Assembly (NCBI GenBank): GCA_000091205.1
Contig: AP006484.2
DNA from: Cyanidioschyzon merolae
Lineage: Eukaryota
Direction: 5' to 3' (one strand)
DNA: 64,000 nt
The notes under the pieces were generated by a model. It had not been told where the DNA came from and searched no databases. It saw only the letters and a list, made by a program, of their open reading frames with translations. This document shows positions 1-60,815 of this stretch, one piece after another. The position numbers and the translations under genes were made by a program. Every line of letters starts with the position of its first letter. The first letter of the stretch is position 1.

Positions 1-959
1 CCCCATTCCCCCCATTCCCTCCTTTTCCACCATACCCTCTTTTCCCCTCGTTGCCCCCAAATTTTTACGCATTTCCCCATTAATGCGATGATCCCAGCGC
101 GAAAGCATCTGTGATTAAGACGTCTATCAATTTATACTCGTTAGGGTTTTTTCTTCGGTGGTACCATCTGGGCGCCTACGCATCTGTCATATCTTCCTCT
201 CGCCTACCAGAGCCATTAGGGAAATAGCTTCAGAGCTATGCTTGTTTTGGTTTTGACAGAACCTTTCCGATGTCGAGATCGCCGAAATTGCCGGATTGAT
301 ATTGGTTTCGGGAAATCATCCGTCCCGCTGAACTGTTTCTTTATCTTCCGTCGCATTTACTTAATCCCGGCTGTATTGATCATATCTGACTTTCTATCTT
401 GCGCCGTGTACCTGCCGTTAGCACCCCCCGTAGCCTCTCTATCCCCGTTTCCGGTATACTCTTGCAGCAGAGCAGCTCTGGCATACCACTAAGCGCGTAT
501 GTAGAGGCTTCGTTCATGCAACATTTGATCGGGGAGATTTATTTTCTTGGGAGACTCCAAGCCGTTCTTGCAGACCTTTTGCCTGCGGTAGCGTGAAGCG
601 TGCACTATTAGTCCACCGCGAGGAAGCCTACGCGCAGACGCAGCATGCCCGCTTGTAGTCACGAAATCAATTGCTATGCCGATGAGATGCTAAGGTGCGT
701 CACATCACTCTCAACTGAAATTCAGACGGATGCCAGGCGGGTAGAGTCTCCCGGCTCGCAGACCTCCTACCTAAATAGAATTGTTTGACCATACGCGCAA
801 ATTTCTTCCTCTTAAACTTTACAGTAGTTTGCGATGATAGTTGCTGTCCTTTTTGGTACTTATTTTTTTCTATGTCGTGCGCTTTGGTAATGCATTGCGA
901 AATCTGGCCGTCACGTCACTCCACGTGCGTCTCGCCCATCACGAGAAACATGTTAATAT

Positions 960-3350
960 CCTCTTCTGGAGCGACTGCTCTATATGGGCCACTTGCATGT
1001 GCTATGCAATCGTAGCAAAGTACAGTTTTTGCTTCAATGGCGTTTCGGTCTTCAAGTAAGAGTATTCAACTGGTTCTCGCCGTTCGAAACAGAAGCGTCC
1101 AATGAGTTTTTCTCAAAAAAAAAAGTTAGAGTTATGTAATTGTTGATAGTAGGTTTTGGTTGGTCTTTGTTGCCGGATGAAGGAAACGAAACGAGACATA
1201 GTGCCTAGCGAAGACGATCAGGAATGAAGAAGAAGCAAAAGGGGAGACCTTTTGTCGATAGCTGCAATAGTGCCGTCTAGACGACGAGATGGATGTAGAA
1301 TCCTGTCGTTTCCAACATATCAATGACCGGTTTGGCTGAATTTTGCGAGACGCTATCAGAAACAATATCGATTCGTACGCCAGGTATCTTTGTAACTTTT
1401 CTCCCTAAGTCTGAAGCATTTGGAGAGCGACCTGCTTTGCGACGTAACGCACATCGCAAAAGTGATGTTTCCGGAAGTATTTTTTCAAAAGACTTTCATA
1501 ACCCACCTGAATTGTTCTACTGGGGATACATAGAGGAGAAATGAGCGTGTGCATCCCTTCTTCCAAAATTACGCCAAGTACCTCGTCAGCGGTGCTGGAC
1601 ACAAGGGTGACGCAGAATTTTAGGAATACAGGGCAACGATATGCCCCACGAATATGAGGAACCATAAGATCGTAAACATCGATTCTTTAATGATACGCGT
1701 CGTCATTGCGCTGGATCCGGGCCTGTTTCGCGAAGGGATGCGGGCAATCATCGATGGTACCAAGAACAATCGCTTGCATAAACCGGAAATCATATTCGTC
1801 GACAAGAGGTCATCACGGAGGAGAAAGAATGGGGTTTGTGTTATCCGCGCCTCTGTTCTAAACCATCGTTCGATCTTGGGGCTTGTCAACCCAAGAGGAA
1901 AGCTCTCAGATGTAATCAAAAAAGACGAAGTGAGATGTTACTCACTCATTCTGCCCTACTTCATGGTTTTGGACAGAGTACTCGAACGCGAGGCCGAAAT
2001 GGAGCCAACTGTGGAAAAAATGACGGATGGGAGAATCGACATTGATGTGCTTCTCCAGATGCGCTTCATTGTCGTCCAGTTATTCGAGTTCGAGTCACAT
2101 TTTCTGTATATCGACGTTAGAGTCCTTTACGCCTTTATGACAAAGATTTGTCCAGAGCTCGATATTAGCAACGAAGAGGTCACCGGCAAGACCGGACACA
2201 TACTGGAAAAATGTTTTCTATTTCAAGCGTAAGAAACCGGCCAAAAAAAGGTACCACGGGTGCGATCGATAACGATGGGTTATACATACATTGACAATAT
2301 CAGCGGTTGCAGGCACTTCGTCCTATCCCGTCTTCGTTATCGCCATTGCCGAACCACGAAAACAAGAAGAAAGGACACGGGACGTATATCCCCCACGAAA
2401 ACGGCTTTCTCGTCGGCCTTAACCCCTGGAAGAAGGATATCATTACCATCGCTGTACCCAAGCGTGCGGATGATAGTACTGGAGGAAACTTACGTCAGAA
2501 AGAGATGCGTCTGTTTAGGTTTTCGAGGGTGAGATACTACCGATAGTCGGGTATAATGAATGAGAGGAAGGATTTTGAGGCGTGGAACGCAGAAGTGCAA
2601 GAGAACCTTGAGGCTATTAGCTAGGTAACGAGCCGAGGAGCGGACTTACAAGCTTCTTGGGAGTTCCTGGAAGTTCGTGTTGCTCATTGCGTGGCGCTGT
2701 AGGCGGAGTATCCAAATGCCCGGTGGGTTCGTCTACGTATGAATCTATACTGTGAGCATCAGCGTGCGCTAGCGAACTTTTTCAATCAGTTGAGAGCCTT
2801 GAAAAAGGCCGAAAGTCATAGGTGCGTAGTAGCATACGGAACAAGGCGCTGGAAGAACCAAAAAGGAATTACGCCGGCTCCAACGACAAGAACATACAAG
2901 GAGTGCGCAAGGCGTTTCGTCACGATACATGTAGATGAGTTCCGAACCTCGTAGACACACCATGAACTGGGGTGTACATTTCAAAGGGTCGAGATGGAAA
3001 AGTGCCAGCGGAGGCCTGAGGATAGAAAAAAGAACGGACCGCTGACAGACGAGCAAATGGAAAGGAGGTCAAAAGTTCGTGGATTGCGTGCGTTAGTAAG
3101 TACAACCAGTGACGGCAAGAGACGGATGGAGTTCGTGAATCGTGATTTTAACGCCGCTATCAATATAAGCAGATGAGCGGTGCTGGAGAAGAGACCTCCA
3201 GCGTTGACACGAGAGAACTTTGTTGGACAACCTCTCAAAGTCGAACTATATCAGAAGAAGTTGGAAGCAGTAGTGGGTGGCCGCTCCAAAAAGACGGGGA
3301 CGTCTGCACATTGGTTAATGACGTCTAGTCTAGGGCGGGCTTCTCGCCAC
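960..3350 (+). mobile_element. Degraded copy of a ~2.4 kb TnpB/Fanzor-like (OMEGA-family) transposable element, copy 1
   Basis: Nucleotide and protein homology to a second copy at 58270-60770 in the same orientation. Shared blocks include tcaagtaaGAGtattc, aacagaagcgt, caaaaaaaaaa, ttgcgagacgctatcagaaac and the 3' block gtgctggagaa...tctcaaagtNgaactatat...gtctgcac...tctcgcca. The internal ORF fragments carry TnpB-like motifs. Confidence 0.6.
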
Positions 3351-3380
3351 TACTGTACACGGTCCGCATCATCCGTGTGA
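1323..3380 (+). pseudogene. TnpB/Fanzor-like RuvC nuclease gene disrupted by stops and frameshifts; ORF fragments 1323-1544, 1654-2232, 2307-2546, 2739-2954, 2994-3176, 3180-3380
   Basis: Translation gives [21 protein letters not shown], where the RuvC-I Asp is replaced by Asn relative to [15 protein letters not shown] in copy 2. VTIHVDEFRTS is followed by an in-frame TAG at the codon where copy 2 has TAC. RDFNAAINISR carries the RuvC-III D-NAA-NI signature and is followed by TGA where copy 2 reads through. Confidence 0.55.
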
Positions 3381-3436
3381 GTCCACTCGCGCTTCTATTT
3401 CGCTACACTGATTGCTTGCATCTGGAACGATTACCC

Positions 3437-6301
3437 TTACAGAGTTGCGGCCGGCCACTCCGGTCCTTTAAGTCCAAACAAACAACTGGAGACGCCACTC
3501 CAGCCGCCAAAATACTCCATCTGCCATCGCTGCACCGTCCAATACAGTTTGCGCACAGCTTGCGCCGGGTGGAATAGCCCTTGCGTCAGGTAGGCATTCA
3601 GCACTCCTGCGCCCAGCGCTATTCCCAATGCTTGCACCGAAAACGCTACCGCATGTTCTAGGTGCGTGTCTTCCGGCGAAGATACCTGGGCTACGTACGC
3701 CGGCCAGACGTGGTTCAGCAGATGGAGCATCGCCTCCTCGTAGCCGTGCCCCACCAGCGCCAGAGCAAAGTGTCCCGTCGCCTCGCAAGCCAACTGTCGG
3801 TGCGTATCGTAGCGTTCAATCAGCGCCGATTCCAACAAACGCGTCACCGCATACACCTGGAGAGCATTCCACGACCGATTCGCATCACCGGAAAATGCGC
3901 AGTAGAACCCGACGGATTTCAGGATCCCAGTTTGAACATTCTTGTCCTGCTCGCCGATGTAAGCATCCAGCAGCTGCGCTAGCATCCGGTCGGGGCTCTG
4001 TAAGGTCGCTATGGCGAGCGCAACGGATGCAGCGACACGCATCGAGCGATCGGTTTGTCGAAGTGCAGCAAGCAAGGTTTGCCCTAGCGAGTCAATTTGG
4101 CCAAGCACGCGAGCGACGGCACCGTATGCATCAACCGCCCGGTAGCGCACTTGGCGCCGCTGGGCACCGAGCGCTCTTCGAAGCTCCTGGGCAACACGCA
4201 GCCATTCCGAGTCTGGAATACTGGAGCCAGCATGACGAGCAAGCACCATCACAACCAGAGCCGCCGCAGCTTGTACCTCTTCGGCCGGATTTCGTAAGAC
4301 AGGAACCAATCGGGAGAGAATCTCAGCGAATGGAACCTCCGACGGCGGCAGGTAGGCAGTCAAATGGTCCAAAATGGCACCCAGTGCTTCTAACATGGCC
4401 GCCAACGCCTCCGGATACACTTCATTGTAGCACTCTGCGAGGACGATACCCAGACGAGCGAGTGCATCCGCATCTCCGAGTTGCACCCACATGGGCACCA
4501 GTCTGCAGACGAGTCGTGCAGCCTCTGCACGAGTCGCAGCCGCTGCACTCTGTAAACGAGCCACTAGCAAATGCACCAGCGTCTCGGACCACGGTACGAC
4601 GCGGGCACCCAACATCCACAGAATCGAGCTCACGTGGCGGTAGGGAGTCGGCGCAGAACGCCGCAAGCACTGAAGTAGACCCTGGATCAGACGGCGCTCA
4701 GAAGCCGGCTTCAGATCAAGCTGGCCACGCCCGCTCCGCAGCACCTGCCGCACCGTTTCCAGTAACAATAGGACAATCACGGGATCAGCATCCGCCGCGT
4801 CCAAGCAACAAACAACATCATCCGTCAACACAGCAGATACACCAACCCGCTCAGACATAAGTGCCGCCACTCGAGCAAGCCGCCTTCGAACAGCGCTGCG
4901 TGCTGCCGCCCGACAGACGCTTCGCTCCGGTCGCAGGAAACACATCTCCAAAAACTCTCCTAAAACGTTCGATGCTAAGGTGTCTTCGGGTATACTGCCG
5001 TGAACAAGCAGCTGTTCAAGGACACCAACAGCGCAGTGTGTGCGCATCGCACGCATCGTTGGCGCCAAAAGCGCCGCTGCATGAAAGGCGCGTTCCTCCA
5101 ATGGCATGCAGCGAATCAGCGCAGCTGCCGCTGAGAGAAACGCCACCAACGTTCGATCATAATAGGCACGCACGCCGTCCCAAATGGGTGCACGCAGCGC
5201 CTCCAGGGAGGCGGAATCTTGCGCAGACACCACCGTAGCTAGCGCCGCCACAGCACGTGCACCAGCAAGTTTCACGAGCGGATCCGGATCTGAAACAAGG
5301 CGCAGCACGAACTGCACAAAACTTGGTAGATGTGGGTGCAGATCCCCACTCCATCGCGTGGCCAGGAGGCGTAGTGAAAGCGCAGCGGTTTCCCGCGGTA
5401 GCGATCCGTACCGCCGCGAGCTCAGCATCGCTTCGAGAAGCGGTTGTATCGTAGCGAATCCTGCACTGGACGCCAGAAACGCAATGACATGAGCGGCGCA
5501 GAGCCGAATCAGGTACTCTGGTGATTCGAACCAGGGCCGTATAGCTTGGATGATCGGTGCAACGCCGACCAGGCGGAGAAGTGACCTCAGTAGGGAGGTA
5601 TTCTCCGGCGCGTCTGGGTTCATTGCGCGATCCAGGTCGATATATGACGTTGGCGCTTCGTGCTCTCGTCTCGCCTGACGTTCGACGGACTTGTCTTCGA
5701 AGTTTGAGGTTCGGTTTGGATCGAGTTCGGGCAGCCTGCCCAGCATCGTCAGATGAAGGAGCTCGCTAACGTACAACCTGACATGTTCTCCAGCGGCGTC
5801 GGCGAAGCGGGGTAGCGCACGCATCAAAGCCAGCGTCGCCGTGGCGTCCCATTCGCCAGCGCGCCAGAACGCGAAAAGTGTTCGGAAGACACCGCCGGCA
5901 TCGCCTCTGTTCGTGATAGCATAGGTTAGAGCGCGTTGTGCAGCTTTCCGCTCAGCCAGAACACTGGCGTTTTTCAGCTCCAACACGTGCTGCACGATAA
6001 CCTCAGAGGCGTGGTTTTCCCGAACCAGAGCGCCAGCTACCGCCTCGTCCACGGCAGTGCGACACGAACGTAGCGTTGCCACCGACAGCAAACCTTGGGC
6101 TCGAGTCTGTTCAGGCTCAGGTCCATCAGTAGACTTTGATGACTCGGAAACCGTTCCTGATTGCACACTCTCACTACTAGTCCCTGGCACGACACCGTCA
6201 ACAACCACAGTCCAGCGGGTCCGTTTCCGTGCCTTCTGTGGAGCGCTCTGCATCACGACTGGTCCATGGAGTCGTTCAAGCGAGCTTTCCAACGCTTCCA
6301 T
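3437..6301 (-). CDS. SF3B1: Splicing factor 3B subunit 1 (SF3B1/Hsh155)-like HEAT-repeat protein, 954 aa, lacking the canonical N-terminal ~350 aa
   Basis: The C-terminal blocks TGILKSVGFYCAFSG, YAVTRLLESALIERYDTHRQ and QGLFHPAQAVRKLYW align to SF3B1 [35 protein letters not shown] and QGLFHPARKVRDVYW. The protein is HEAT-like LxxAL repeats throughout. The ATG at 6301 is genuine. Confidence 0.8.
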   Translation of the reverse strand: MEALESSLERLHGPVVMQSAPQKARKRTRWTVVVDGVVPGTSSESVQSGTVSESSKSTDGPEPEQTRAQGLLSVATLRSCRTAVDEAVAGALVRENHASEVIVQHVLELKNASVLAERKAAQRALTYAITNRGDAGGVFRTLFAFWRAGEWDATATLALMRALPRFADAAGEHVRLYVSELLHLTMLGRLPELDPNRTSNFEDKSVERQARREHEAPTSYIDLDRAMNPDAPENTSLLRSLLRLVGVAPIIQAIRPWFESPEYLIRLCAAHVIAFLASSAGFATIQPLLEAMLSSRRYGSLPRETAALSLRLLATRWSGDLHPHLPSFVQFVLRLVSDPDPLVKLAGARAVAALATVVSAQDSASLEALRAPIWDGVRAYYDRTLVAFLSAAAALIRCMPLEERAFHAAALLAPTMRAMRTHCAVGVLEQLLVHGSIPEDTLASNVLGEFLEMCFLRPERSVCRAAARSAVRRRLARVAALMSERVGVSAVLTDDVVCCLDAADADPVIVLLLLETVRQVLRSGRGQLDLKPASERRLIQGLLQCLRRSAPTPYRHVSSILWMLGARVVPWSETLVHLLVARLQSAAAATRAEAARLVCRLVPMWVQLGDADALARLGIVLAECYNEVYPEALAAMLEALGAILDHLTAYLPPSEVPFAEILSRLVPVLRNPAEEVQAAAALVVMVLARHAGSSIPDSEWLRVAQELRRALGAQRRQVRYRAVDAYGAVARVLGQIDSLGQTLLAALRQTDRSMRVAASVALAIATLQSPDRMLAQLLDAYIGEQDKNVQTGILKSVGFYCAFSGDANRSWNALQVYAVTRLLESALIERYDTHRQLACEATGHFALALVGHGYEEAMLHLLNHVWPAYVAQVSSPEDTHLEHAVAFSVQALGIALGAGVLNAYLTQGLFHPAQAVRKLYWTVQRWQMEYFGGWSGVSSCLFGLKGPEWPAATL

Positions 6302-11014: not shown

Positions 11015-14000
11015 AAGCTTAACCGCGCGCCATTAGCTTGCGAGCCAGGCAGCTAATCAGCGAACGACACTTTGCTGGTATGGCGAGATCCGCGCTCGCA
11101 CTACTCATCGTCAGCGTTGACCTGGCTTGTGCGCCAAGTATGGTTACATGAACACTTGCATGATAGAAAGCCGCGAGAAGCTGGTTATCGCCCGTGTCTC
11201 TGTCCGTCATGGTCGCCTGCATGCCTCGTGAGCATTCGACCTCGGCCGACACTTCACACCGAAGGGCTTACTGGTTCAGTGTAATGTTCGTCGAGCTCTG
11301 CAAGGGTCCCCCGCCCAAAGGGTCCTCGACGAGCCTTACTTTTTCCTGCAGTTTGATGGGTGAGCACTTTCATAGCGTTGATGATAGATGTTTTTGCAGA
11401 ACAATGGCGCAGGTGCCTTCCACCATACTCAAGTTGGAGACGCATACCCACACATGGTAATCGGAGCGAGAACCGTTCAGATTTGAGAACTTTGTGCCTG
11501 GAAATTTTTCGCGTTCCTCGCAGCTCGGTTGTCTGCATCTCAAAAGTCTACGACGCAGATACCCGAGGCTGCCAAAGACCCTCGCTAACGCGACGCGTCC
11601 AACAAGATCGGACCGAGCTCTGGGCGTATTGCACTGTAAAAGGCGCATCGATGACAGGCGGACGAAGGCACTCTGCAGCAGATGGAGTTCGTGGCTGCGC
11701 CACTTGGTCTAACGGGTACTTGATATGTATCCTAGTCTCGAGTGCGTTTCGATTGTCTCAGCGTTCCGTGGTACCCGAATCTAAAGTTTTCATCTGTTGC
11801 TCTTGCCAGTCGTCGCGCTAGAATCAGAACGCAAAGTTCTGCAGCATGTATATCCGCAAGCACTTTCTGTACTTGTTTGTTTTCTCGCAGGTATCCTACG
11901 AACGGAATGTATCCTGCAGATTGGCCAGAGGTCCCAGAAACTGCTGATGCTGTCGCTTCTAGCTTGCGAGAGATGCGCACGCGTCTGCAAGCCAGTGATT
12001 CTGCGATGAGCAGGTGTATGGAGCACGCTCCCCGAAGTCGTAATGCTGGAAATCTTGCAAGTAAAGTACAAGTCATCCAAGCTGGTTTTTCACGACTGTC
12101 TCCTCGCCAATCCATCGTACTTCATAGGTTAAACGAGAAAGTCTACCAAACATGCCACCGGGGCTTGGGTTTCCGCACCACTGATACGAACGGCGATAAA
12201 GAGGCTCTGATGGACAAAGGAACATGCACGCTTCCACGAAAGACCATCATACGTTGAGCAAAACACAATCGATTTCGTACTGAAACGCGAATGCACCTTA
12301 ACGTAGGGACGGGTTCTCGTCCCACTCGATGATACTACATTTCGGGGAATTGGTAGACCTGAAAACTGGTACTTAAGGACAGGCGATCCGCTGTTCGGAA
12401 AGAAGAGACAAGAGAGCATTCCAAAGGTATCAGCCCGAGCGCCGATGCTATTATATGCCCGCCAACAAGTCGCCTGCAAGGCAGCTTCCTTCGAAACGTC
12501 ACCCTTTGCGCTCGCGTGCACTTCCGTGCTGGTGCTAGGTAACGTCAATGTGCATCTCTCAAATGCGTCTCATGAGTAGGCATCGGAGACTAGCGATGGG
12601 ATGCCCGGCGTGGTTGCGTTTTCTCTCTGCTCCAGTGTGGTCGAAAGCGTCTTCTCCGTTGTCATACAACCATCATGTCCCTTACGGATGCATACAAAGA
12701 TAGTTCGCATCCGTGATGCCAACGTCCTTCGACAATAAATTCTCTACCTTTATCAGCCCTGGACTGCTATCCTGGCAGTCCACTCATACGCGGGATGCAG
12801 CGGATAAGCTCGCTTGGATCCGTGGGCGTGCTCGCAACGGAACAATTGATCAAAGCGCACTTGAGGAATCGTTCATACATGCCGAAGAAAGGCGAGTTCT
12901 AAAGCAGACGTCCCCCTAGTGCTTCGGAATCATGAGCCAAAATCGAGTATGGACGATTTCGAGCACAACAATGCAACCGCGTTTAAGAAAAGAGAATTCG
13001 AGGAAATCACACGCCTATGAAGAGCAAGGGAATTCGAAGAACCTTACGAGGAATGACCGGATGGAAGCACTGTCCATGCAGAAAGCTCCGTCTGAAACTG
13101 TTGTCAAGGCCTCACAACTGATTCACGTCAACGGGGAGAATCTTCCACGAAATGAGATTCGGGACTGCATTGAAGATTGCACAAATTCCCAGACGAGGAT
13201 TGTTCGCCTTGCCACAACTCGTTGGGCAACTGTAATTAGGACTCACGGACACAGCTCTGCCAACGGTCCACAAACTTCATGAATCTATCCACCAAACCTT
13301 TGAGCGTAACGAAATCTGATGCTCGAGTCCTATCATTGAGCATCTCCTGATCCGAGGATCATAGACATATACGCAAGCTTCCACGAATACTTCGATGCAT
13401 CGCAGCGCCGCGTAGGCGCCCGAGAGAAATCTCCAGCACCGGTGCCACAAAGTATAACAGCAAGCGAGAAAACAAAAACATAAGCAGCTCAATATATCGA
13501 GCGATTCATGTGGCACAAACTATCGGCTTTGTAGCGGAGGAAAAACGAGTTGATGGAATGGTTTCCTGGGGTATCGATGGAGGCAAATGACAAGCTGGTA
13601 ATGGCGGAAGCGCCCGAGCTGGTAGCGAGTACGGATCAGGTGACTCTACAAGAGAGGGTGTGTGCATGGGCCTCGTCAGATCTTCCAGGATCGACGTGTT
13701 GTTCTCGACCCCGGGCCATTGGACGTCGAATCAGCAGCATGATTGAAACGTAACGTCTGACTTGCTCCCATTTTGCGGTCCTACGTTTTCCTGAACAGTG
13801 CGATCCGGGCGAATCAGAATCGCTCTCAGAGTGAGAGCGCCCCTGGCTCGCCAACCTCTTATTCAATGCTAATCCGAACATCAGAACAAAACACATGACA
13901 TTGCTGTAGACTCTACTGTATGGTACTCATTTGTTCTGGTTTGACTTTCAGAACGCCATCGCTGGCACCCGCAAGCAAGTATGAAGCATTCGAACACGTT

Positions 14001-16827
14001 CTCCAAGTGCATTTTAGGAGATTGTCCAAGGCCTGTCTCTCACACGCAGGGAATGGACAGCAGTTCACAGCACCGATAGAGGCCGACGGAATATCCATCT
14101 GGATACACTAGGTGAAACCTCCACATCGTATGACAAGAGTGGACACATTTTCCGTCATCTAACAGCATTAACGAGAAGGACCCGGTGGTTGACATGGTTC
14201 CTCGGCTGCCGGGCTCCGAGGCCGTCTTCGTCCATGTAAAGCCAGAACACGGAACCAAAGTCTTGAACGGCGAGCCGATGAACCTGCTCAACTTTTCCAG
14301 CGCTCGGTATCGTCAGGAGTCGGGCACGACGAATGCCACGAAACATACAAAACCAGAGGAAAGACGGCGCATGGACCCAGTTCGACACGCTGAGCACCGA
14401 ATCGAGCACAGGAGGGATTCGTTGTACGCTTCATTCAGAGCGTACATGAGCGTCCGAATGGCTTATGTGGGCGATCTTGAGCAGGAGCATATGCGACCGT
14501 GCAGCGTTCGCCGGCGATTTCGCTTGCGCGGAGCCAAGAAGCTCGTATTCGCCATCTTGTTTCATGAATCAAGCAACAAAATGACTCATACGTCGCATCG
14601 TTTCATGGTGGTATCCAGTGGCACTGGACACGCTGTGGCGCGCAGAGGCTGCACGCCGGCTACTTCGACGAGAACGTGTATCGAGTGCAGGAGGCGGTTC
14701 CGAGCGATTCCCGTAGGAGCGTTCAAGAAGCCATCCATGCATCACGAGCACGCGTGCCCACTGGAACGTATAGCAACGAGGTGCTTGAAACAGGGATGGA
14801 TGCACGAGCTGGTGTCCGATAAACTGGCTGGTATGTCCGATGGCGGGAAGATCGAATACTGAAGGCCTGCGGTGGTGTGCGTCGACCAACAACCATGCGC
14901 ACAAGCACTCTCTGAACCGAGACTCGAAGTTTCCGATCAACATGCAGGAATGCCTCATGTTGACGGAGCGTCCAGCGGGGTGGTATCGAGTGAGCTATCG
15001 GCGGCAGTGTTGAGTACACGGTATGCGCATTGCGCTGGGACGCTGAACACTTCACTGGACAATCCCTATGTCGCTAGGAGCCAGAGGCGACTGGATTCTC
15101 ATTCCAAGCAAGGTAGAGGTGCAGATACACGCGGCAATTTCGCAAGGCTGGAGCTCTCTATCTCTGCACTGGGAACGGTCTCCTCGGGTGTCTGATAGAT
15201 GATAACGGTATTCCGGCATTCAATAGGAATGCGTATAAGTGTAAAAAGGTTTATATAGTTTTACCACTGAAACAACTGCAAAAGACGCTTTGAGTCCATT
15301 TTCTATACGTTTGCTCACCGGCCTTGGACCCCCGATACACCCGTACCAGAATGAAATGGGGCGATTCCACTCATCGAACTCGGCCTTGCACGCTAATCTT
15401 TGAGTCCCTGCTCACTGTCATCAAGAACTGCCTTTGCAGACGCTTCCAGCATCTGCTTCCCGTCCCCTTCTCTTACCTATGGCTTTAAATGCGCTTCTCC
15501 CTACTTTACCACCATCTCCGTTGTCAGTAGTCTAAGGATGTCGCTGGTAGGACCAAAGCCGCGAATGCACCGCTACCGGCTGACGTCAACGCATGGTACG
15601 CTGAGGCAAATTTGCGATCCACGCCTCCTTTGCAATGTTCATTCTCTTGGTAAACAGATCCAGTACGACCCTCATAGCATTGACACATGATTGTGGTCAG
15701 CTATTCGCATACGTCGACCGCACCTCCGCCGACTTCTCTGAGCGCCGCTCTATACCATTCGAATGTTTGTTTTATCGCTCGGCACACGCCCTTGCCAGGC
15801 AAAAAAAGTCTCGCCTCGATGCCGCAGCCTACGATTGCGGCTCTCTTCTGAGCAATCGCTTTGGCGAGTACGCATTCCAATACATGCGAAAATACATAAA
15901 GTTCCATTTGATAGAGGATTTGTAGAACGCGACGTTGCTCATGGTGAAACAAGTTCTGATGAGAGAATCGAGGCTGGAGCTCACGTCGAGAACGTCGACC
16001 CGTCGACGCTCCCTTCGTGTCCGGCGGTGACGCATTCGCCTCTTGATACGATCGCTGTGCTACCTGAACTCCGAGTCCGGGTCTGTTTTCCGTGGAAGCA
16101 GAAGAAACGGGAGCTTCTGGTACCATATCCAAAGAGAAGCGTCACGCTGCTGTCGTGAAAAGCAGAATCATCGGGTACCACAAAGATAGGCGGATTTATG
16201 ATCCAAATGAAATCGAGTATTTGAGGCACCGTATTCGGTGAACGTTCGCCATGAATTTGCGAATATTTCCTCTGGGGACGATCCTCGAGAATCACTCTTC
16301 ATTGATCCCGTGGGCGCGCACTGCTATGCCGTCCAGGTGCCCTAAAAGAGAAGAATCAAAAAACTCAATGAATGCGCGACTTGAGCATGCTACACGTAGG
16401 GAAAGGAGAACAAATAAGGATTGTACTCATGAGTTGCATGATGGTTTCGGTTACTTTACGAACTCGTGTTCGAATCCGTCGAGATTCGTTTTGAATCGTG
16501 TGACGTGACGAGCACCAGCGGCAAAATGTCGAAACCATCCTTCTAAGAAGCCTATCGAGAATCCCATTACGAATTATGAAAGCGTAGGCCCGTCACAAAA
16601 GCGCTTGAAGTGTCGAGGCTACACACCTTGACCCATACTTGAAACAAAACGCAAGGCCGTATCAGACTGGCCAGTTCAGCGTCGCATGCCCGTCGGACTC
16701 GCGTGTCGCTAGTCGCAGTACCGGTCGCACGCCTCGTGCCAGGTTTCTGCGATACTAAGGCTCCAAGTCAGCAACAAAACAACCGGATTGTCGCGTTTAG
16801 CGTCCAACTGGAGAAAGCAACCGATCT

Positions 16828-23507: not shown

Positions 23508-24633
23508 GGCGTCGAATACGAGATACGATACGTAGGTTTCGAGTTTCAAGCTTTGTAGATGATTGTTTTCGATAAGGTTGTTGGAGTGAGTCCGTCCAAC
23601 CTTGATTTCGATGGAGTGTCAACGACCAGAGGTACGTGTGCTCAGCGAGCACGCCGCTTGGCGCTGTGCGTGTCTCTGAGTCGAGACGCCCCGTAGCAGT
23701 GCGCGGGTGTAACCGCTCACCGTGAAACGCGCCGCAACGCACCCACACCAGACCCCTAAAGTCCAGTTCACGAAAACCCCCCAGACTTGTAATAAGAGTC
23801 AGGAACACCACCAAGCGCACTGCAACCTAGTAGGAACACGGCAGTGCAGGATACCGTACCCGTCCGGGCGTTGCGTCCGTGCGTGCATCTCAGCGGCAAC
23901 GGTACACGGAGACAGCGCCGGATGATGCGTGTCCCGCCGTCGCCATCATCGATGTGCTGTCCGGGTGCACGCATGCGATTTTCGAAACCGCCGAAACGTG
24001 TACATAGGGGGGCGTTCTCCAAGTGGGCGCTCTTGGATTTCTTCGTTTTCCGGAGCGTCCAACGAATCTCCTATGTCCAAGTTCCATTACCCTCACTTGT
24101 CCTCAGCAATAGTGGTTGTTTCACAGGTTCTAACGTTCGCCGAGTGCATGGTTTGCTGCAGCGGTTGTAGTGTCTCTAGAGCCGGGTGCTGCCGAACTAC
24201 GATTCCGCGGTGCTTCTAGGGCTTCATCGGTTCAGGATACGTCAGGGACGTGCGCGCAGTGCAGCGGGCCCTTCAGGTAGTCGTCTGTCGAAGGGCGCCA
24301 GCGCGGCCCATAGACGTGCGTATACCGAGTCCGCCGAACTGCATTGTCGGACCGCGTGTACAGCATACTGCAGGTGCTACCATCCAGGAACCATCAACCC
24401 TGCGTATCGTGTATTCGGGTGAACGCGGGCACTTGCGGTTCCTCCCGGAACGCTGCTAGGGCTTTCGCCCAGAAACTAGGGGTGCAGCTTTGTCGCAGTA
24501 TAGGATGCATCGGGCAGATTCATCCGCCTTCTACGATCCTGTTGCTCACTTCGTACTTGTCCATGGAGCATGCGCTGCATCGACGCTATCAAGCATAAAC
24601 TGAGCACCGGTAACACTTTTGGTTACCGATTTT

Positions 24634-48572: not shown

Positions 48573-51500
48573 ATGGAGAGCCTGCATCAACGGCGTGCCG
48601 GATACGAAAGCGCTATAGGCGTGGAAGCTACCGCGCATGCTTACAGACCGTGCCTCGTAGAGAGGGTATGTTGTTGCGGCCTCTTTGGTTGCAGAGGGGC
48701 TCGTTCGTCGGCCTCGCAGGTTGATATCCGTACATCAGCATACGTTTCAAAGTTTACGTCGGAAACGGCACTGCTAGAAAGGTTTCTCTCTCGTGAAGAG
48801 CCGCAGGACTAGTACCGACACTGCAGCCTCTTCCCAGACTCCGGGGCCGCTGCGTACTCGAGCGGGTCCAGGAACTGTGCGCCGTTTTTGGAGACAACTG
48901 CGTCAGTGACTGGACACCAACTGGGAGCTGCTGAGAACATGCACTGAGTTGCAGCGTGCGCTGCTCAGCCTGCGCTGGACAGGCAGGCGACCTTGCTTCG
49001 ACGCTGCCGGCGCCTTCTCGAGGCCGCCTTCCAGGACATCTAGTGGACCGGCCTGCAGCATTAGCGTTGCTTTGAGGACACGTGTGTATGCAAGTATGCA
49101 CCAGCCAGTTGGAGCGCTGGTTCGCTGCTGATGGACGAAGGCTGCGCACTAGTCGCAGTTGTCACGCGGAAAGCTTTCATGAGCTTTCTCGCACGGCGCG
49201 CTCCGAAAGCCGCGTCATCATAGGCATCCATTCCGCGGATGCACCTGCCGAGGACACGATTCGGAAGCCAGCGTCGCCTTTGCGCTTGCTGATGCTGCTA
49301 ACTCTGCCGAGCAGTGTGCGATGTGGCATCGCTGCTTTCTGCAAACGAACCTAGAACGCATTCTACGCTGCATCGACGCCCGAGATGCATACTCGGAACC
49401 GCGCGCTCGCGAATACTTGATCTCTCTTGGTAGGTTCGTTACGAGACGCGAGGTCTTGTCTCTGGAGCAGGTCCATCTTGTGTTGCGCTCACGAGGCTAC
49501 CGAGCGGAAACTTCTGCGGATCGAGCGATTCCGCGGTGCTCGGTACCGTTTCCAGGCCTGTGCACCTCGGCCGCCACGCGCGGCAACTGGGACCTCTCGG
49601 ATGAGCGAATGCTAGCCCGGGGTATCGCTCTGGTTGCCGAGTTTCTCCAGCGTGTCGCTTTGCATCGCTGTCGGGTCGCTTACGTGAGCTACCTGTCGTT
49701 ACCCAGACCGATATCGAGCCCCGAGCCCGCGTCGAGTACGCTGCACCTCGAATGGATGCGCGTAAAGGTGCTGCGAAGTCGTCGTATCGCCAGGGCAGTG
49801 ACAGCAGCGATGCAGATAGGATTGCGCTATGCACGAAACCCGTGGATGCATACCTCGTCCGGTCTTGTATTCCCTAGCAGAGTGCTGTTCTGAAAGTGAT
49901 GCAACCTGGGTGTTAACGTGTCAGCGCTGAAGTACATAGCCTCATCGATGGCGCCTGATTTGCCGCATCGATCCCTGACCACCTGGGTCGCGGGCGTGCA
50001 GCGCCTCGTTCGACCAGATGCATATGCACCTTGAGACACAACAATATCGACAAACATGTACCGTGCGATTCACGAGCGGGACTTTGACATATTGCAGCGT
50101 CCCCGGTGCGCGGTCTGCGACAGCGGCATGCGGCATGTGAGCGCTACCGCTGGCGTCGCAAACGTGCCCGCCGAGAACCCGAAGCACAACTAGAGCCGCG
50201 TTGGATTAAAGTGGGACAGTGAACTGCTTGTTCTGTTCCTGTTATTCGATTCATTCACGGATTTTGTAGACGTACAGCCTCGACGCTCAAGCCAAGTCCC
50301 GCTGTAACGGCCTACGGATTCGAAAGCAATGCTGAAGACTCTCAGTCGTTTATTCGGAGTTGCTCCTTTGACGCCTCGCTGCTGGAGTTCCTTGCCCTAA
50401 TGGTATCAAAATGAACCGCGACGCTCTGGGACTAAAGTTCGTGAACCAATGGATACCATCATCGGTGCCGTGCGTTACGCATTCCCAAATGACGCATTCT
50501 GCATGTTTTCGATCCTTACGTTTCAAGGCAACTTGTGGGCACAGTCATTGGCCTCGCTAAATTGTCGCGGAGAAACGACTTGATGTCATTCGTTGGGAAA
50601 CTCTATGCGAGATCATCTCGCAAGTCCATTGAACTTGTTACGTCAAATCATCGATTCCGTTCCCAAGACACATCCTGTTTCGCACATCGCCATCGACGAC
50701 ACAATATTCAGCATCTGCATATTACATCGCATCGGAAACACCCCGAGAGGCTCATGTCTCTGCTATTTGCATGGAAACGGGTCCTGGACTCGGACTTGAG
50801 TCGTCCCAGCGATCGGTTCGGGTGGAGCATGCGTCACCGCCTTGCACGAAGGCAACGTGTGCTGATCGGGATATTTCGATGAGCTCTGTATCCTCGATTT
50901 ACCTACCGGTGCTTGTTTCATCATGGATAACATTGCGTTCAACAAAGTCTCTCTTGAATGGAGCGGCGTGCGCTTGCGACTGCAGCGGACTGCGTACTCG
51001 CCAAGAGCGTTGCACAGCAGAAGCGCATGATCATAGGGCAAGGCACCGCGCGCGCGAAATCGGAGGACGACATCCCAGTGAGCAGTTTTTCACATGTCTG
51101 GGGCATGCACCAATCCACGAAGCAAGCCGTGGAGCGCCAGAGGGCTGCACTCGGCGGGCAAAATGGGGTGTCCATAGAGGAGCACCTCAGCCCAGTCCGG
51201 TGTCACCGCTGGGATGAGCGCATCGATGCCATGCACATTGAAGATGAATACAGGAAGCGAAGCGTCGATCACGAATTCCGCCTGTCCATGACTTGCATTG
51301 ACTAGAACTTGAAGAGGCGAAATCAGTACATGAACGCTGCCACCAATATCCCAAGACGGCAGAAAATGGAGCCCGAGGGAAGCTGGACAACCATCGTACA
51401 CGCACCCAGAGGCCAGAATGAGGAATGGAAAGCAGTCGCAGCAGAACAAACCAGCAAGGTCTGGTGTTCATGTCAATCGGAAGAGACCCATTTTCTAGTC

Positions 51501-53782: not shown

Positions 53783-54096
53783 ACGCGCCATTGAGGCGCG
53801 CGCGCGATGTGCATCACGGATCGAGAAAGAAGCGGGTCGACGCCCGCTGTGGTACGGCAACGCCGCTCTGTTTCCGTGCAGCATCCGCACCGGCGCCTGA
53901 GGCGCCATGGCGGTCAATCAGGACAGGCACCCGGCACACGATAGAACGTATGAAACGACCAGAATATCCGAGAAGAAGTAAAGGTAATGGAATTTGGAAT
54001 CAGGGCGTGGATCGACGGATGCTTCACCGTGCACTGAAGAATACAAACAAAAGAAAAAGAGAGAAAAGTGCTCGATTAGAGAACGCTGGCCTATTT

Positions 54097-54665
54097 TTCA
54101 GATGACAAATCGTTTACATTGACCATGGATCGCAGCATTCGGAATGGAGAATGGCTTTCGGGAAAGCGTCCATCATGAAGCACCTCCCTTCAAGTTCCAT
54201 TACCAGTACTTCTTCTTATCAGATATACAGGTCGTTTCGTATGTTGTGTCGTGCGCCGAGCCTGCCGAAAGCGACAGCAATAGCGCATATACCGCTGAAG
54301 CAGGTGCGACACGGAGACAGAACGGCTTTGCCATTACCAATGAAAGCGTCGACTCGAGGCGTGGTTCCTCCGACATAGGGTCGGAGCACATAGTAATTCT
54401 GGGAGCCTGCAAGCTGCCCAGACGGACGTGCAACCTGCGACAGCGCGAAGCGATATACTAGGAGTCCGCTGCGACCAGGGCGACGCCCGGGCGCAGCATA
54501 ACTGCGCTTATTCCCGGAAGGAACTGTGTTGAGGACGAGCTGTTCATGTCTCGCCACAGCACCCGCCACTGGGGGAGCACGAAGCACGAGCCCGGGACAC
54601 TCGTCCGGCTCGCGGGGCCTTCTACCTAGAAGGTAAACTTTCGAAGATACGGGAACTTTTCACCG
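54097..54665. repeat. Left arm of a large near-perfect inverted repeat (about 569 bp)
   Basis: The reverse complement of 55435-56005 matches 54097-54665 with 1-2 mismatches, for example ttcagatgacaaaTcgtttacattgaccatggatcgcagcattcgg. ORF pairs 54144-54461(+)/55641-55958(-) and 54219-54587(-)/55515-55883(+) are identical mirror images apart from one H/Y change. Confidence 0.95.
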
Positions 54666-55434
54666 TTCCAACGCTCATTATCAAGGTCAAAAGAAACTGT
54701 TATCTAGTTGCTGGTCAGTGTTTAGTTTCTGTTCTTTCTTCCCTAGGAGAATGCTCTCTGCTCGCGGCCTGGCACAACTGGAGGGCCCACCAGTCCGAGG
54801 ACTAGCCTTTGTTGCCGCTGTTTCTATGCAAAGCTCTGCCGCGCGCGCTCCTTCTCTCTTTCTCTCTCTACATTCTCCTGTCCGCGCCCTTGGCCAAAAC
54901 TCTGAAAAGATATCGCTCGCGTCACTCGTGTTCCTATGTAGGGTATATAGATACGCACTCACAGACGCCTCCGGGCCTTTCCTTGACGGGCCGCGTGCTA
55001 CCGGATTCAGCTTCTCCTCGTACACTACGAGCCTGTCATCGTTTTCTGCTGCTGCCTCCGGCCCTCCGTTCGTTGCGGCCAAGGTCCCTGTCATGGGCTT
55101 CCTTCCCCGTCGCTCGAACACCCCGAGTGAACCCACTTTCAGAGCTTCGCCGAAACAACTAGACCTCTCAGACGGGGGTGGTGTGTGTGGGGCTTTAAGA
55201 TACTTGCTCTTTAGTACACAGTCTGTGGCTAGTTTGTTTTGTTGTTTTTTTCTTTTGTGTTTGGGCAGGTGTCTCCGTCTTGATTGGCTGCGTATCGATG
55301 AATATCACGCGTCGTGTCTCATGCCTGCCTGATCTCCCAGGCGCGCTCACCAAGCGAACTATAGAATCACGTACAGAGACTCATGACTAACGCGCAACGA
55401 TATGAAAATTTCCCCCTCTGAGCTAAACGTTAAA

Positions 55435-56005
55435 AAGAGGAAAAGCTTCCCGTATTTCAGAAAGTTTACCTTCTAGGTAGAAGGCCCCGCGAGCCGGACG
55501 AGTGTCCCGGGCTCGTGCTTCGTGCTCCCCCAGTGGCGGGTGCTGTGGCGAGACATGAACAGCTCGTCCTCAACACAGTTCCTTCCGGGAATAAGCGCAG
55601 TTATGCTGCGCCCGGGCGTCGCCCTGGTCGCAGTGGACTCCTAGTATATCGCTTCGCGCTGTCGCAGGTTGCACGTCCGTCTGGGCAGCTTGCAGGCTCC
55701 CAGAATTACTATGTACTCCGACCCTATGTCGGAGGAACCACGCCTCGAGTCGACGCTTTCATTGGTAATGGCAAAGCCGTTCTGTCTCCGTGTCGCACCT
55801 GCTTCAGCGGTATATGCGCTATTGCTGTCGCTTTCGGCAGGCTCGGCGCACGACACAACATACGAAACGACCTGTATATCTGATAAGAAGAAGTACTGGT
55901 AATGGAACTTGAAGGGAGGTGCTTCATGATGGACGCTTTCCCGAAAGCCATTCTCCATTCCGAATGCTGCGATCCATGGTCAATGTAAACGTTTTGTCAT
56001 CTGAA
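55435..56005. repeat. Right arm of the large inverted repeat (about 571 bp)
   Basis: See the left arm. The outer boundary falls at gtcatctgaa, after which the flank diverges to ataatcagg. The inner boundary falls near gaagcttttcc. Confidence 0.95.
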
Positions 56006-56210
56006 TAATCAGGTGCGCATCGGACACGTGCCTGTCACCTGTCCGCGCGCCGCAACGCCGGATCCGGATGCAGCGATACACGTCGCATAACCCGAGATGC
56101 GGGCGCTTATGCATCACTGCATACACGCATGACGGGCGTCCATGTAACACCGAACGCGCCTTTTTGTTCATTGTCTAGACGAGTTAAAAGGTTGATTATC
56201 CTGTGAATTG

Positions 56211-57158: not shown

Positions 57159-58269
57159 TGTCTACCAGGAATGACTGCGAACGGATCTGCCCTTTCCTGT
57201 ACAGGTATACTAGCGTCACGATTCAGACATCCGGATCGGTACTGTTGGGTTTTTTGTGTACGATTTTTGTCTAACCATTCCCCAGTCCATTACTCTGTGT
57301 ACGTGCTCATCATCTATAAAAGATCGCGTAGCGATGATTCAAACACAATCGGATAGGGCGAGCAGCCACAGCTCGGACCTGAACTCGGGGAGCGTTTTCA
57401 TGACGTATCGCGTACAGGCAGTCGCAGGTTTCGGGTCGACGATGAGATCGCAGCGCCGCAGCACCAGCGTCGGCACACCATTACGAAAACGGTGCTCGCA
57501 TCCACCGAAGCTTTCATGAAGGAACAGTGCGTCGCGGACGTCGTCGTTGCATGGCCTTTGGTGGAGTGCGTGCGCTTCAAGGTGTCAACGCGGCTGCCTT
57601 GTAAGCAACAAGCGCGCCCTATGCAGACGTTTGTGGGTACCTCAACTGCATCATGAGGTACACACAGCGACAGCCCTACTCCTGGGCGTTCGAACAGCCC
57701 ATACGACGTCGCCCGGTGGTGAACAGTAGTATATGCTTATCTTGGGTGTCCAGATTTGGCAGCGCACGTACCCGAATTCACTACAATTGCGAATGGATGC
57801 CCACGAGATATCGAGCCTAACGTAAGCATTTGGTCTTCATCATGCGAGAGTGATGCGTGGGACGAGAAGCTCCAGCTCGCATAGATGATGCTGATGCCGC
57901 ATTTTTCGTGCATAGAGCTCCTGTCCTGAGCGGATTCCTGCGAATACCGCAGCCCCCAGTTCAGTGTTTCCCCTCGGACCAGAGCTTTATTGGATCTAGC
58001 GATCCGCCCAGTGGCTCGTCCGCTGCGCACGACTCGAGGAGGCGGGGCGCTGTTTTGCTTTATACGGTTTTGCAATGATAAACCTAACGACGGATCCCTC
58101 TGATGCACCACAATTACCGGAATGAGGACGTATTTGCCTGCAGAGTGTCGGACACGTGTCCATCATCGATCGGAGTAGCGTCTCGCGCGGTGCACGCATT
58201 GCGCACCGTAAGCGCGCCTGGGAGATCGGGCAGTCAACTGACGCGACGCGCGTGCCGTTGTTGAAGGGA

Positions 58270-60770
58270 AATGGGATCCTGATCAGGAGCGTGTAGCTCT
58301 CTTTTAAAAGTTGTATTTCCGTTAACTTGCTAGGCAAGTGTAGTTTTTCAGCTCACTCGTGTTTCAAACCTCAAGTAAAAATATTCGATTGGGGTTTACC
58401 GGTTTATAACAGAAGCGTTCAAAAGCGTTTTTTTTCCAAAAAAAAAACTAAAAAAGGAAAGCTATGAAAAAAGTTGACGATCTTGGAGGCCCAGTGTCGC
58501 TGGCTGCCAGAAAAAAAAACAAAAACCAGTGCCGAGTACAGAAGAAAAGGAAGAGGAAAAGAAGCAAACAATTTAGAGGGCCTACGTCGTAGGCAGCAAG
58601 AAAGACGCCTGTACGACGAGACGGTGGTGAAAGTCTGTTTTCTTGAACATGACTAGGATCCGTACGATGAAAAGTTGCGAGACGCTATCAGAAACCATGT
58701 CGACTCGTTCGCCAAGAGTATTGTCAAGGCGTCGTCAGGATTGGTGCATTTGGCGAGGGAGATGCATTGCAACGTGACGCACATGGAAACGGTCGAGATT
58801 CCGAATGAGTTCTTCGATAAGACCTTTACTCGTCACCTGATGCTTGGTACAGAGGAAACGCGGAAGGAAAATGAGCTGGTGCAAATCCTCCACGAAAAAC
58901 ATCCCCTTTACAGCTTCAATGGTACTCGATACTAGGCTTACCGGGATATTTATCCATATGGGCCCATGAAGTACCCCACGAATCTGAAGGACCATTTGAC
59001 GGTGAACCTCGAACGTTTCATGATACGTGCCGTGGTTACACTCTACCTGGGCCTATCTCGCAATGGAAAATGGGCGATTATCAATGGCGTCACGAACGAC
59101 CGCAAGCGTGAAGATGAGGTCGAATTTGTCGACAAGAAGACATCACGCAGGAGCACGAATGAAGCTTCTGGAATCCGTGCGGTTACAGAAGAGCACCGTG
59201 CGGTACTGGGGTTGGTTCATCCAACAGACAAGATATCAGAGTTGAAAAAAGACAAGGAAAGATACTATCGCCTCGTCCTGCGATATTTCGTGTTTTTGGA
59301 CCGAGAACTCGAACACAAGGTGGAGATGAAGCTGAATGGCGAAAAATGAAGAGTGGGAGAGACCGAAGGCTTTCCTAAAGGGGAAGCGCTTAAACGTGGT
59401 TCCAATGTGCAACATCAGGTCACATTTCGTGACTATCGACTCCAGAATCCTTTACGGCATCATGAAAGGGATCAGTACCGTGTTCAATGTTAGCAGGGAA
59501 TACTTCACCGGCGAAAACCGGGAGACGTACTGGAAGAATATCTTCGATTTCAAACGCCTGAGAGTGAGCAAGCAGAAATTGTTCACTGGGATGATCGAAA
59601 GCGATGGAGTAGCCTTGTGTGTACACGATCGGCGGTTGAAGACAAATCGTCCAGTTCCGCCCTCGGTCTCGCCCGTGCCGAAGCGTGAAGAAAAGGAGGC
59701 GGATCCTGTGACGCAGGAGGTGGAGGATAACGACCTTGTCGTTGATGCGGTGAAGCATGAAGAAAACAAGCAGGCGGATCCTGAGACGCAGAAAGTGCAT
59801 AACAACGACTTTGTCGTTGGCGCGGACCCCGGAAACACAAATATCATAACCATCGCAGTACCCAAACGTGCGGAGGATTGTACTGACGGTAACTTACGTC
59901 AGAAAGACATACGTATTTTTAAGTTCTAAAGATAGAGGCATTACCGAGAATCCGGTATAATAAATGCGAAGAAGAAAATCGGGACATGGAATGCAGGAGT
60001 CAAAGAGCACCTTGAAGCTTTGAGCGAGGTGACGAGCCGCGGAATAGACTTTCAAACTTTTCGGGAGTTCATGAAAGTTCTCGTTCCTCATTGGTAGGCG
60101 CTGTGGGAGGCGTATACAAAGCCCCGGTGGGCTCGTCTGCGTATGAACGTTTACTGCGGGAAACAGCGTGCATTCGCGAACTTTTTCAATGAGTTGAGTG
60201 CCTTCACAGATGATGAAAGTCACAGGCTCGTAGTAGCGTACGGAGCAGGGCGCTGGGCGTCGAGAACAGGTACTACGCCAGTTCCGTCAACAAGAACGTA
60301 CAAGGAGTGCGCGAGGCATTTTGCCGCAATGCCTGTACATGTGTTCCGAACATCGTATACACACCACGACTTGGAGTGCACACTTCTGAAAGTCGAGGTG
60401 GAAAAGTGCCAGCGGAGCCCGGAGGATATCAAATTGTACGGACCGCTGAAGGAAGAGCAAATGGAAAGCAGGGCAAAACTTCGAGAGCTACTTGCGCTTG
60501 TGTGCACAACCAATGATGGCAAGAAACGTATAAAATTCCTGTATCGCGACTTTAAGGCCGCTATCAATATGAGGACATGTGCAGTGCTGGAGAACAGAGC
60601 TCCGGAATGGACAGGAGGGAATTTGTGGGGCAACATCTCAAAGTGGAACTATATGAGAAACAATTGGAACCATTCGTACGTGACCGGTCGAGGATAACTG
60701 GGAAGCGTCTGCACCTCAGTGGATGACCTCGTGTCTGGGGCGCGTCACTCGCCAATATTCTACTCCGCTG
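58270..60770 (+). mobile_element. TnpB/Fanzor-like (OMEGA-family) transposable element, copy 2 (about 2.5 kb)
   Basis: Homologous to the element at 960-3350 from the 5' block (tcaagtaaaaatattcgattgg...aacagaagcgttcaaaagcgttttttttccaaaaaaaaaac) through to the 3' block ending ...gtctgcacctcagtggatgacctcgtgtctggggcgcgtcactcgcca. Estimated nucleotide identity between copies is about 65-75 %. Confidence 0.65.
58675..60697 (+). CDS. TnpB/Fanzor-like RuvC-family nuclease, coding capacity spread over 4 ORFs in different frames (58675-58935, 58966-59349, 59336-59929, 60143-60697). The gaps may be short introns or frameshifts
   Basis: RuvC-I reads [22 protein letters not shown]. The canonical RuvC-II region [12 protein letters not shown] lacks a Glu. 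The TS-zinc-finger region reads [14 protein letters not shown]...EKCQRSPED. RuvC-III reads RDFKAAINM, followed by a 45-aa C-terminal tail. There is paralogy to the copy-1 fragments, for example [36 protein letters not shown] versus LGLVNPRGKLSDVIKKDEVRCYSLILPYFMVLDRVLE. Confidence 0.55.
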
Positions 60771-60815
60771 GCGGCAGCGTTTTTCTTCTGAAAGGCGTTT
60801 GTTGTTGCTGGCGAT

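Follow-up and report, generated by a model that had tools for sequence, protein, structure and literature searches.

The 64,000-nucleotide stretch of Cyanidioschyzon merolae analyzed here in its entirety (contig AP006484.2 of assembly GCA_000091205.1; hereafter, the window) carries, near its two ends and in the same orientation, two decayed transposable elements, each of which contains a Fanzor1 pseudogene. The two elements, denoted copy 1 and copy 2, lie about 57 kb apart on one chromosome and consist of the following parts:

287..3360, plus strand: copy 1, a nearly full-length, heavily decayed CMe-1A element (blastn to positions 37-3137 of the CMe-1A consensus)
287..1124, plus strand: non-coding 5' leader of copy 1 (blastn to consensus 37-894, 66.5% identity)
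1134..3333, plus strand: Fanzor1 pseudogene of copy 1, the remnant of the 734-codon CMe-1 open reading frame (ORF; alignment to the consensus coding sequence)
58129..60797, plus strand: copy 2, a CMe-1 family element without the TE-N2 module (blastn to consensus 657-3169; leader located by nhmmer)
58464..60738, plus strand: Fanzor1 pseudogene of copy 2 (alignment to the consensus coding sequence)
60776..60799, plus strand: 3'-terminal stem-loop of copy 2, AGCGTTTTTC / TTCT / GAAAGGCGTT, a 10-bp hairpin in the minimum free energy fold, located at the element end

With a probability that we put at roughly 0.95, the two regions derive from independent insertions of CMe-1A, the sole Fanzor1-encoding repeat family of the red alga C. 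merolae, and have long been dead. One Fanzor1 family, CMe-1A, was described in this species by Bao and Jurka (2013, Mob DNA 4:12; PMC3627910), with about 150 copies of about 3 kb, each about 80% identical to the consensus, no terminal inverted repeats, and target site duplications listed as undetermined; the 734-aa CMe-1 protein and the 3169-bp CMe-1A consensus were published as supplementary files (PMC3627910). CMe-1 is a founding member of Fanzor1, and the published description of the element names this single protein (PMC3627910). Copy 1 (287-3360) aligns with the consensus in a single blastn high-scoring segment pair with 73.8% identity over 3122 nt (E=0), and copy 2 (58209-60797) matches consensus positions 657-3169 at 82.7-84% identity. 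Whereas the published sequence is a consensus, the window holds individual decayed copies from the same species and family, both of which align along it at 74-84% identity. These identities match the published divergence, and copy number and the lack of terminal inverted repeats likewise agree with the description of CMe-1A. Furthermore, the decayed ORFs of both copies are colinear with the 734-aa CMe-1 protein, which carries the same peptide strings. A sequence-only reading of the window had called the family worth characterizing, but it is not new: host, family, and relationship to TnpB/Fanzor had all been published in 2013 (PMC3627910).

Comparison of window positions 1-5000 with the whole window using blastn produced two colinear matches, both on the plus strand: 1343-2369 with 58675-59698 (65.1% identity over 1036 nt, E=1.7e-54) and 2400-3358 with 59804-60763 (75.7% identity over 961 nt, E=0). 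The homology of the two regions far exceeds chance, and the divergence between the copies amounts to 35% in the 5' half and 24% in the 3' half. The sequence-only reading, which had reported homology between 960-3350 and 58270-60770 with 25-35% nucleotide divergence, is borne out in both respects, although the coordinates it gave were too short: copy 1 spans 287-3360, and copy 2 spans approximately 58129-60797. Its further proposal that the copies are old insertions of one family rather than products of a segmental duplication also holds, each copy being closer to the consensus than to the other. A duplication of one chromosomal locus would account for the shared orientation and for the presence of both elements on one chromosome at a distance of about 57 kb, but we consider it highly improbable. 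The homology does not extend past the elements into their flanks, which are unrelated; identity to the consensus (74% for copy 1 and 83% for copy 2; 74-84% overall) exceeds that between the copies (65-76%); the two copies have different 5' leaders; and dozens of other copies reside in unrelated flanks, with 71 further related loci retrieved from metagenomes that contain close relatives of C. merolae. The evidence therefore supports independent, old insertions of one repeat family. The copy 1 insertion itself is also present, at the orthologous site and with 98.8-99.2% identity, in two Joint Genome Institute metagenome contigs, L002 and L003 (3300050360 and 3300050361), in which positions 12602-15494 and 12602-13912, respectively, align with the window region 809-3700; both assemblies end at the element or within it, as would be expected of a repeat.

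The two window copies are pseudogenes. Their ORFs are frameshifted and interrupted by stop codons, and one catalytic residue is missing from each. The pseudogene of copy 1 is 76.4% identical to the consensus coding sequence and contains 7 frameshifting indels and at least 12 stop codons in the consensus register. Its RuvC-I motif reads VGLNPWKKDI (2412-2441; NPW at 2421-2429), with the catalytic Asp replaced by Asn (codon 2421-2423). Downstream, VDEFRTS is followed immediately by TAG (2931-2954, with the stop at 2952-2954), and RDFNAAINISR by TGA (3141-3176, with RDFNAAINI at 3141-3167 and the stop at 3174-3176), while the alternative Glu (2937-2939) and the RuvC-III Asp (3144-3146) are retained. 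In copy 2, which is 84.1% identical to the consensus coding sequence, there are 4 frameshifting indels and about 6 stop codons in register, and the terminal stop codon is mutated to TGG (60736-60738). Here the RuvC-I string (59813-59842) includes an intact GADPGN (59822-59836; Asp at 59825-59827), and RDFKAAIN (60545-60568; RDFKAAINM to 60571) retains the RuvC-III Asp (60548-60550), but VDEF has become VHVF in the string PVHVFRT (60332-60352), a DE to HV change that eliminates the alternative Glu (codon 60341-60343).

All peptide strings quoted in the sequence-only reading were recovered from three-frame translations and their coordinates checked. The death of copy 1, argued there from the Asp to Asn replacement and the two nonsense codons, was confirmed at the exact coordinates, as was the loss of the VDEF Glu in copy 2. 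The statement that copy 2 is split over four frames stands only in part, given that there are indeed four ORF pieces but they occupy two reading frames plus a frameshifted tail. A 72-bp insertion in copy 2, at about window position 59700, is one additional unit of a 24-residue repeat. This tandem repeat of 72-75 bp (window 59680-59825; residues ~374-470 of the metagenome homologue P0001 introduced below), with units such as KHEENKxADPxTQxVxDNDxVV, lies immediately upstream of RuvC-I and occurs in one unit in the consensus, two in copy 2, and at least four in P0001.

Short GT-AG introns joining the ORF pieces, suggested in the sequence-only reading for copy 2, were considered and rejected: the stretches between the ORFs are colinear with the single-exon consensus ORF and contain in-frame stops and frameshifts, that is, they are decayed coding sequence. 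In its broader form, this alternative holds that either copy 2 or both elements still encode an active Fanzor nuclease from a functional gene, with the ORF segments joined by short introns or programmed frameshifts. The colinearity and correct order of the ORF pieces and the intact RuvC-I DPG and RuvC-III RD of copy 2 speak for it, but its probability appears to be very low. The inter-ORF stretches match the consensus coding sequence base for base, with in-register TAG and TAA codons, indels of 1-2 nt, and no intron-like insertions, so that splicing is not supported; moreover, C. merolae is extremely intron-poor. The residue replaced in copy 2 is the one whose mutation (E467A) abolished cleavage by ApmFNuc (PMC10530073). 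With ORFs broken by frameshifts and stops and one catalytic residue lost in each, neither copy could act as a nuclease.

The assignment to Fanzor1 rests on profile and structure comparisons of the family, together with its catalytic motifs. The conceptually repaired copy 2 protein matches 49 metagenome proteins, none of which is an NCBI gene model, the best being P0001 (752 aa, 66% identity). A single-sequence search of the PDB with P0001 produced no match, and a five-sequence profile (A2) retrieved only Spizellomyces SpuFz1, at a non-significant E=2.6. A small profile run against 1.84 billion representative proteins, however, identified 2081 homologues at E<=1e-3, and an alignment of 40 sequences (A3), comprising P0001 and 39 diverse full-length homologues, was constructed. 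In the PDB, the A3 profile matches only Fanzor1 proteins, namely, Parasitella PpFz1 (E=1.8e-20), SpuFz1 (9.8e-14), and Guillardia GtFz1 (5.4e-11), with the DPG, DEFRT, and RD-NAA-N blocks aligned in register. For the fold comparison, the close relative P0001 was used in place of the decayed window copies. Its AlphaFold2 model on A3 has a mean predicted local distance difference test score (pLDDT) of 80.8 and a predicted template modeling score of 0.78; the tandem repeat is the only low-confidence segment (pLDDT<50). In a Foldseek search of the PDB with this model, the top 7 matches are all Fanzor1 (E from 2.5e-17 to 1e-13; template modeling score of 0.72 normalized to SpuFz), and Cas12 and Fanzor2 rank after them. 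The TnpB/Fanzor-like nuclease affinity proposed in the sequence-only reading is thereby confirmed and narrowed to Fanzor1, and a structure prediction of the kind it had called for, made here on P0001, recovers the RuvC fold of that group.

The catalytic motifs show the same affinity. GADPGN, which contains the RuvC-I DPG, is shared by the consensus, P0001, and copy 2, and its Asp is invariant in A3; the canonical RuvC-II site reads VVAYGAGRW, with Gly at the position of Glu; the alternative Glu of VDEFRTS is invariant; and in the RuvC-III motif RD-x-NAA-x-N, R, N, A, and N are invariant, with D at least 90% conserved. In P0001 numbering, all 40 homologues share D484 and E656, and at least 90% of them share D725. 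Fanzors differ from typical TnpB in having a DPG RuvC-I motif and an alternative Glu just before [TS][TS] (PMC10711439, PMC10530073), along with Gly or Pro at the canonical RuvC-II position (PMC10530073, PMC10711439). The rearranged RuvC-II site noted from sequence at the outset matches the Fanzor signature and is conserved in the family. The solved Fanzor1 structures, SpuFz1 (8GKH, 9CEU-9CEZ), PpFz1 (9CF0-9CF3), and GtFz1 (9CER-9CET), resemble the CMe-1 family in overall fold (0.72 to SpuFz, as above), significant profile homology, the DPG of RuvC-I, the RD of RuvC-III, and an alternative Glu that immediately precedes [TS][TS]; sequence identity to CMe-1 is only about 14%, however, and the window copies are pseudogenes. 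Prokaryotic TnpB of IS200/IS605 and IS607 and Cas12f are also RuvC-fold RNA-guided nucleases of this superfamily, and structures of Cas12 and Fanzor2 gave Foldseek matches weaker than those of Fanzor1. In typical TnpB, the RuvC-I motif is D-hydrophobic-G, the RuvC-II Glu occupies its canonical site some 50 residues upstream of the zinc finger, and a TnpA gene lies alongside (PMC10711439), whereas CMe-1 has DPG, the alternative Glu, Gly at the canonical site, and no match to Pfam OrfB_IS605.

Several results weigh against identification of these elements as Fanzor1 transposons. Searches of Pfam-A, including OrfB_IS605 and Cas12f1-like_TNB, detected no significant match for the four ORF fragments, the repaired 690-aa protein, or P0001, the best score being PF07282 on P0001 at a non-significant E=0.23; the match to OrfB_IS605 or Zn_ribbon profiles anticipated in the sequence-only reading thus failed to appear. 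For the precomputed label PF26935 (DUF8286), no mention was found in the literature. The C4 zinc finger between RuvC-II and RuvC-III is absent in CMe-1, where the ligand positions are occupied by H, L, C, and S. An Rfam search of the whole window produced no match, that is, no guide RNA was detected, and RNAalifold applied to the 3'-terminal ~315 nt and ~120 nt in 42-43 copies predicted zero pairs and no consensus structure, so that we make no claim of a guide RNA. Finally, the nuclease activity of the CMe-1 clade is itself predicted, by analogy with the characterized Fanzors.

The lack of the zinc finger is treated here as a variant at the level of the clade rather than as evidence against Fanzor1 membership, the grounds for which are homology, fold, and the inclusion of CMe-1 in Fanzor1 from the start. 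Neither CxxC pair occurs in any of the 40 clade members sampled, and of the cysteines only the one in RGLLWC remains, whereas the CxxC...CxxC finger is present in the PpFz1 and SpuFz1 sequences. Bao and Jurka stated that the C4 zinc finger is strictly conserved in the family, yet included CMe-1 (PMC3627910), and Yoon et al. (2023) wrote that "many" Fanzors possess it; the finger is thus a common rather than a defining feature. Its absence from the 40 sampled of the 2081 homologues contradicts the strict conservation of the C4 motif claimed in 2013.

The alternative that the elements belong to a different family, such as prokaryotic TnpB of IS605-IS607 or an unrelated protein, with the Fanzor likeness coincidental or due to contamination, could draw on the missing Pfam match, the empty single-sequence PDB search, and the missing finger, but is the least credible of those considered, given that profile and fold searches select Fanzor1 ahead of Fanzor2, Cas12, and TnpB, that the combination of DPG with the alternative Glu is that of Fanzor and not the D-hydrophobic-G with canonical Glu of TnpB, and that the elements sit between bona fide nuclear genes of C. 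merolae. The sequence-only reading had guessed at an intron-poor protist with a plastid, correctly, as the host is this red alga; two window ORFs are exact full-length matches to proteins of C. merolae 10D:

3437-6301, minus strand: SF3b subunit 1 (BAM78830.1)
60816-62543, plus strand: protoporphyrinogen oxidase (BAM78848.1)

The ATG of the protoporphyrinogen oxidase gene (60816) is located 19 bp beyond the end of the CMe-1A consensus (region 60797-60830). The first 15-25 nt past the consensus end are loosely similar among several copies (GTTTGTTGTYGCTG), so the element may reach as far as the annotated ATG, and this gene model may warrant a check of its N-terminus.

The 71 further related loci from the metagenomes are nearly all fragmented, and no intact copy was found among 74 loci. 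Of the 74, L001, which encodes P0001, is the only one in which a long ORF survives with the catalytic triad complete, yet this ORF lacks an in-frame ATG and is cut short by a TAA 35 codons ahead of the consensus stop. In five loci (L045, L046, L058, L060, and L062), a minus-strand piece (consensus ~2140-2794) abuts a plus-strand piece (2093-3169) head to head, so that a palindromic, rearranged copy is present in several metagenome samples.

The two window copies have different leaders. The 5' 635 bp of the consensus correspond to TE-N2_CMe, a non-autonomous C. merolae repeat of about 70 copies (PMC3627910) that, unlike CMe-1A, has no coding capacity. The first ~600 nt of the copy 1 leader (287 to ~900) are such a TE-N2_CMe-like module, and the window contains related sequences elsewhere:

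54101..54741, plus strand: solo TE-N2_CMe-like element (blastn to consensus 2-640, 81.7% identity)
55308..56001, minus strand: second solo TE-N2_CMe-like element, in opposite orientation to the first (blastn to consensus 2-697, 81.1%)
53838..53998, minus strand: TE-N2_CMe-like fragment (blastn to consensus 90-248, 81.4% identity)
24070-24150: further fragment matching the CMe-1A consensus (blastn)

Positions 54093-54660 and 55442-56009 form a 568-nt inverted repeat with 98% complementary arms separated by 781 nt. The arms are only ~81% identical to the 5' part of the CMe-1A consensus, so that the pair looks like the outcome of a recent inverted duplication or gene conversion. Another inverted pair, 15844-16118 and 50746-51021 (275 nt, 68% identical), is unrelated to CMe-1A and may be an old repeat family.

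In contrast to the CMe-1A consensus, copy 2 and most metagenome copies (L004-L074) have no TE-N2_CMe module and begin at about consensus position 650 (~648-690 in the metagenome copies), and in copy 2 and about a dozen others, a different leader takes the place of the module. A profile of this alternative leader matches copy 2 at 58129-58350 (nhmmer, E=9e-62), where it includes a 12-bp palindrome, GGACACGTGTCC (58150-58161). Three upstream sequences recur among the copies: a directly oriented TE-N2, a fragment of TE-N2 (consensus 84-255) in inverted orientation, and the unrelated leader with the palindrome. Because most copies do not carry the TE-N2 5' module, the CMe-1A consensus as published may combine TE-N2 with a Fanzor core into a composite sequence. 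The leader differences suggest either subfamilies or such a composite origin, neither of which is described in the original report (PMC3627910), and copy 2 is most aptly assigned to a different subfamily within the CMe-1 family.

At the other end, most copies terminate in a 10-12 bp hairpin followed by TT, as judged by eye and by single-sequence folding. The hairpin occurs in two sequence variants, CGTTTTTC/GAAAGGCG and CGTTCGA/TCGAACG. Together with the 5' palindrome, it is compatible with, but does not prove, hairpin-dependent mobilization. The element has no terminal inverted repeats, and neither a transposase gene nor a second ORF is recognizable in it, with no search aimed at a partner TnpA made. 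Because the flanks of the copies diverge gradually, neither target site duplications nor precise element ends could be assigned.

RNA-guided nuclease activity of Fanzors was demonstrated in 2023, and by analogy a working model of the ancestral element can be outlined. An intact CMe-1A would have carried one intron-less gene of 734 codons for a Fanzor1 protein, a eukaryotic homologue of TnpB, whose RuvC site would comprise the Asp of DPG (RuvC-I), the relocated Glu of VDEFRTS (alternative RuvC-II), and the Asp of RD-NAA-N (RuvC-III). This ancestral protein would have bound a guide RNA (fRNA) transcribed from the element's 3' end and introduced double-strand cuts in matching DNA beside a short target-adjacent motif. 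Whereas homology, family identity, fold, the conserved triad, and pseudogene status are demonstrated, this guide-RNA-dependent cleavage is inferred from characterized relatives, and the mode of mobility is likewise an inference.

A bolder proposal is that CMe-1 belongs to a large Fanzor1 clade without the C4 zinc finger that has kept the triad of DPG, alternative Glu, and RD and constitutes an active, zinc-independent RNA-guided nuclease mobilized through hairpin ends, in a manner resembling Helitron2 or IS605. The basis for it consists of the 2081 representatives with the finger missing in 40 of the 40 sampled, a 3'-terminal hairpin in at least two variants, and one subfamily with the 5' palindrome GGACACGTGTCC; in addition, a copy whose catalytic core is intact (L001/P0001) exists in environmental relatives of C. 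merolae. We regard the proposal as doubtful, if considerably less remote than the alternatives dismissed above. If it were true, the clade would represent a new Fanzor1 variant, and the classification of CMe-1A would be settled.

As a discovery, the two elements add little, given that the family, host, and affinity have been known since 2013 and both copies are dead. Precise annotation of the two loci nevertheless aids repeat masking and keeps the ORF pieces from being taken for genes. The remaining descriptive value lies in a Fanzor1 clade without the zinc finger and in the indication that the published CMe-1A consensus may be composite.

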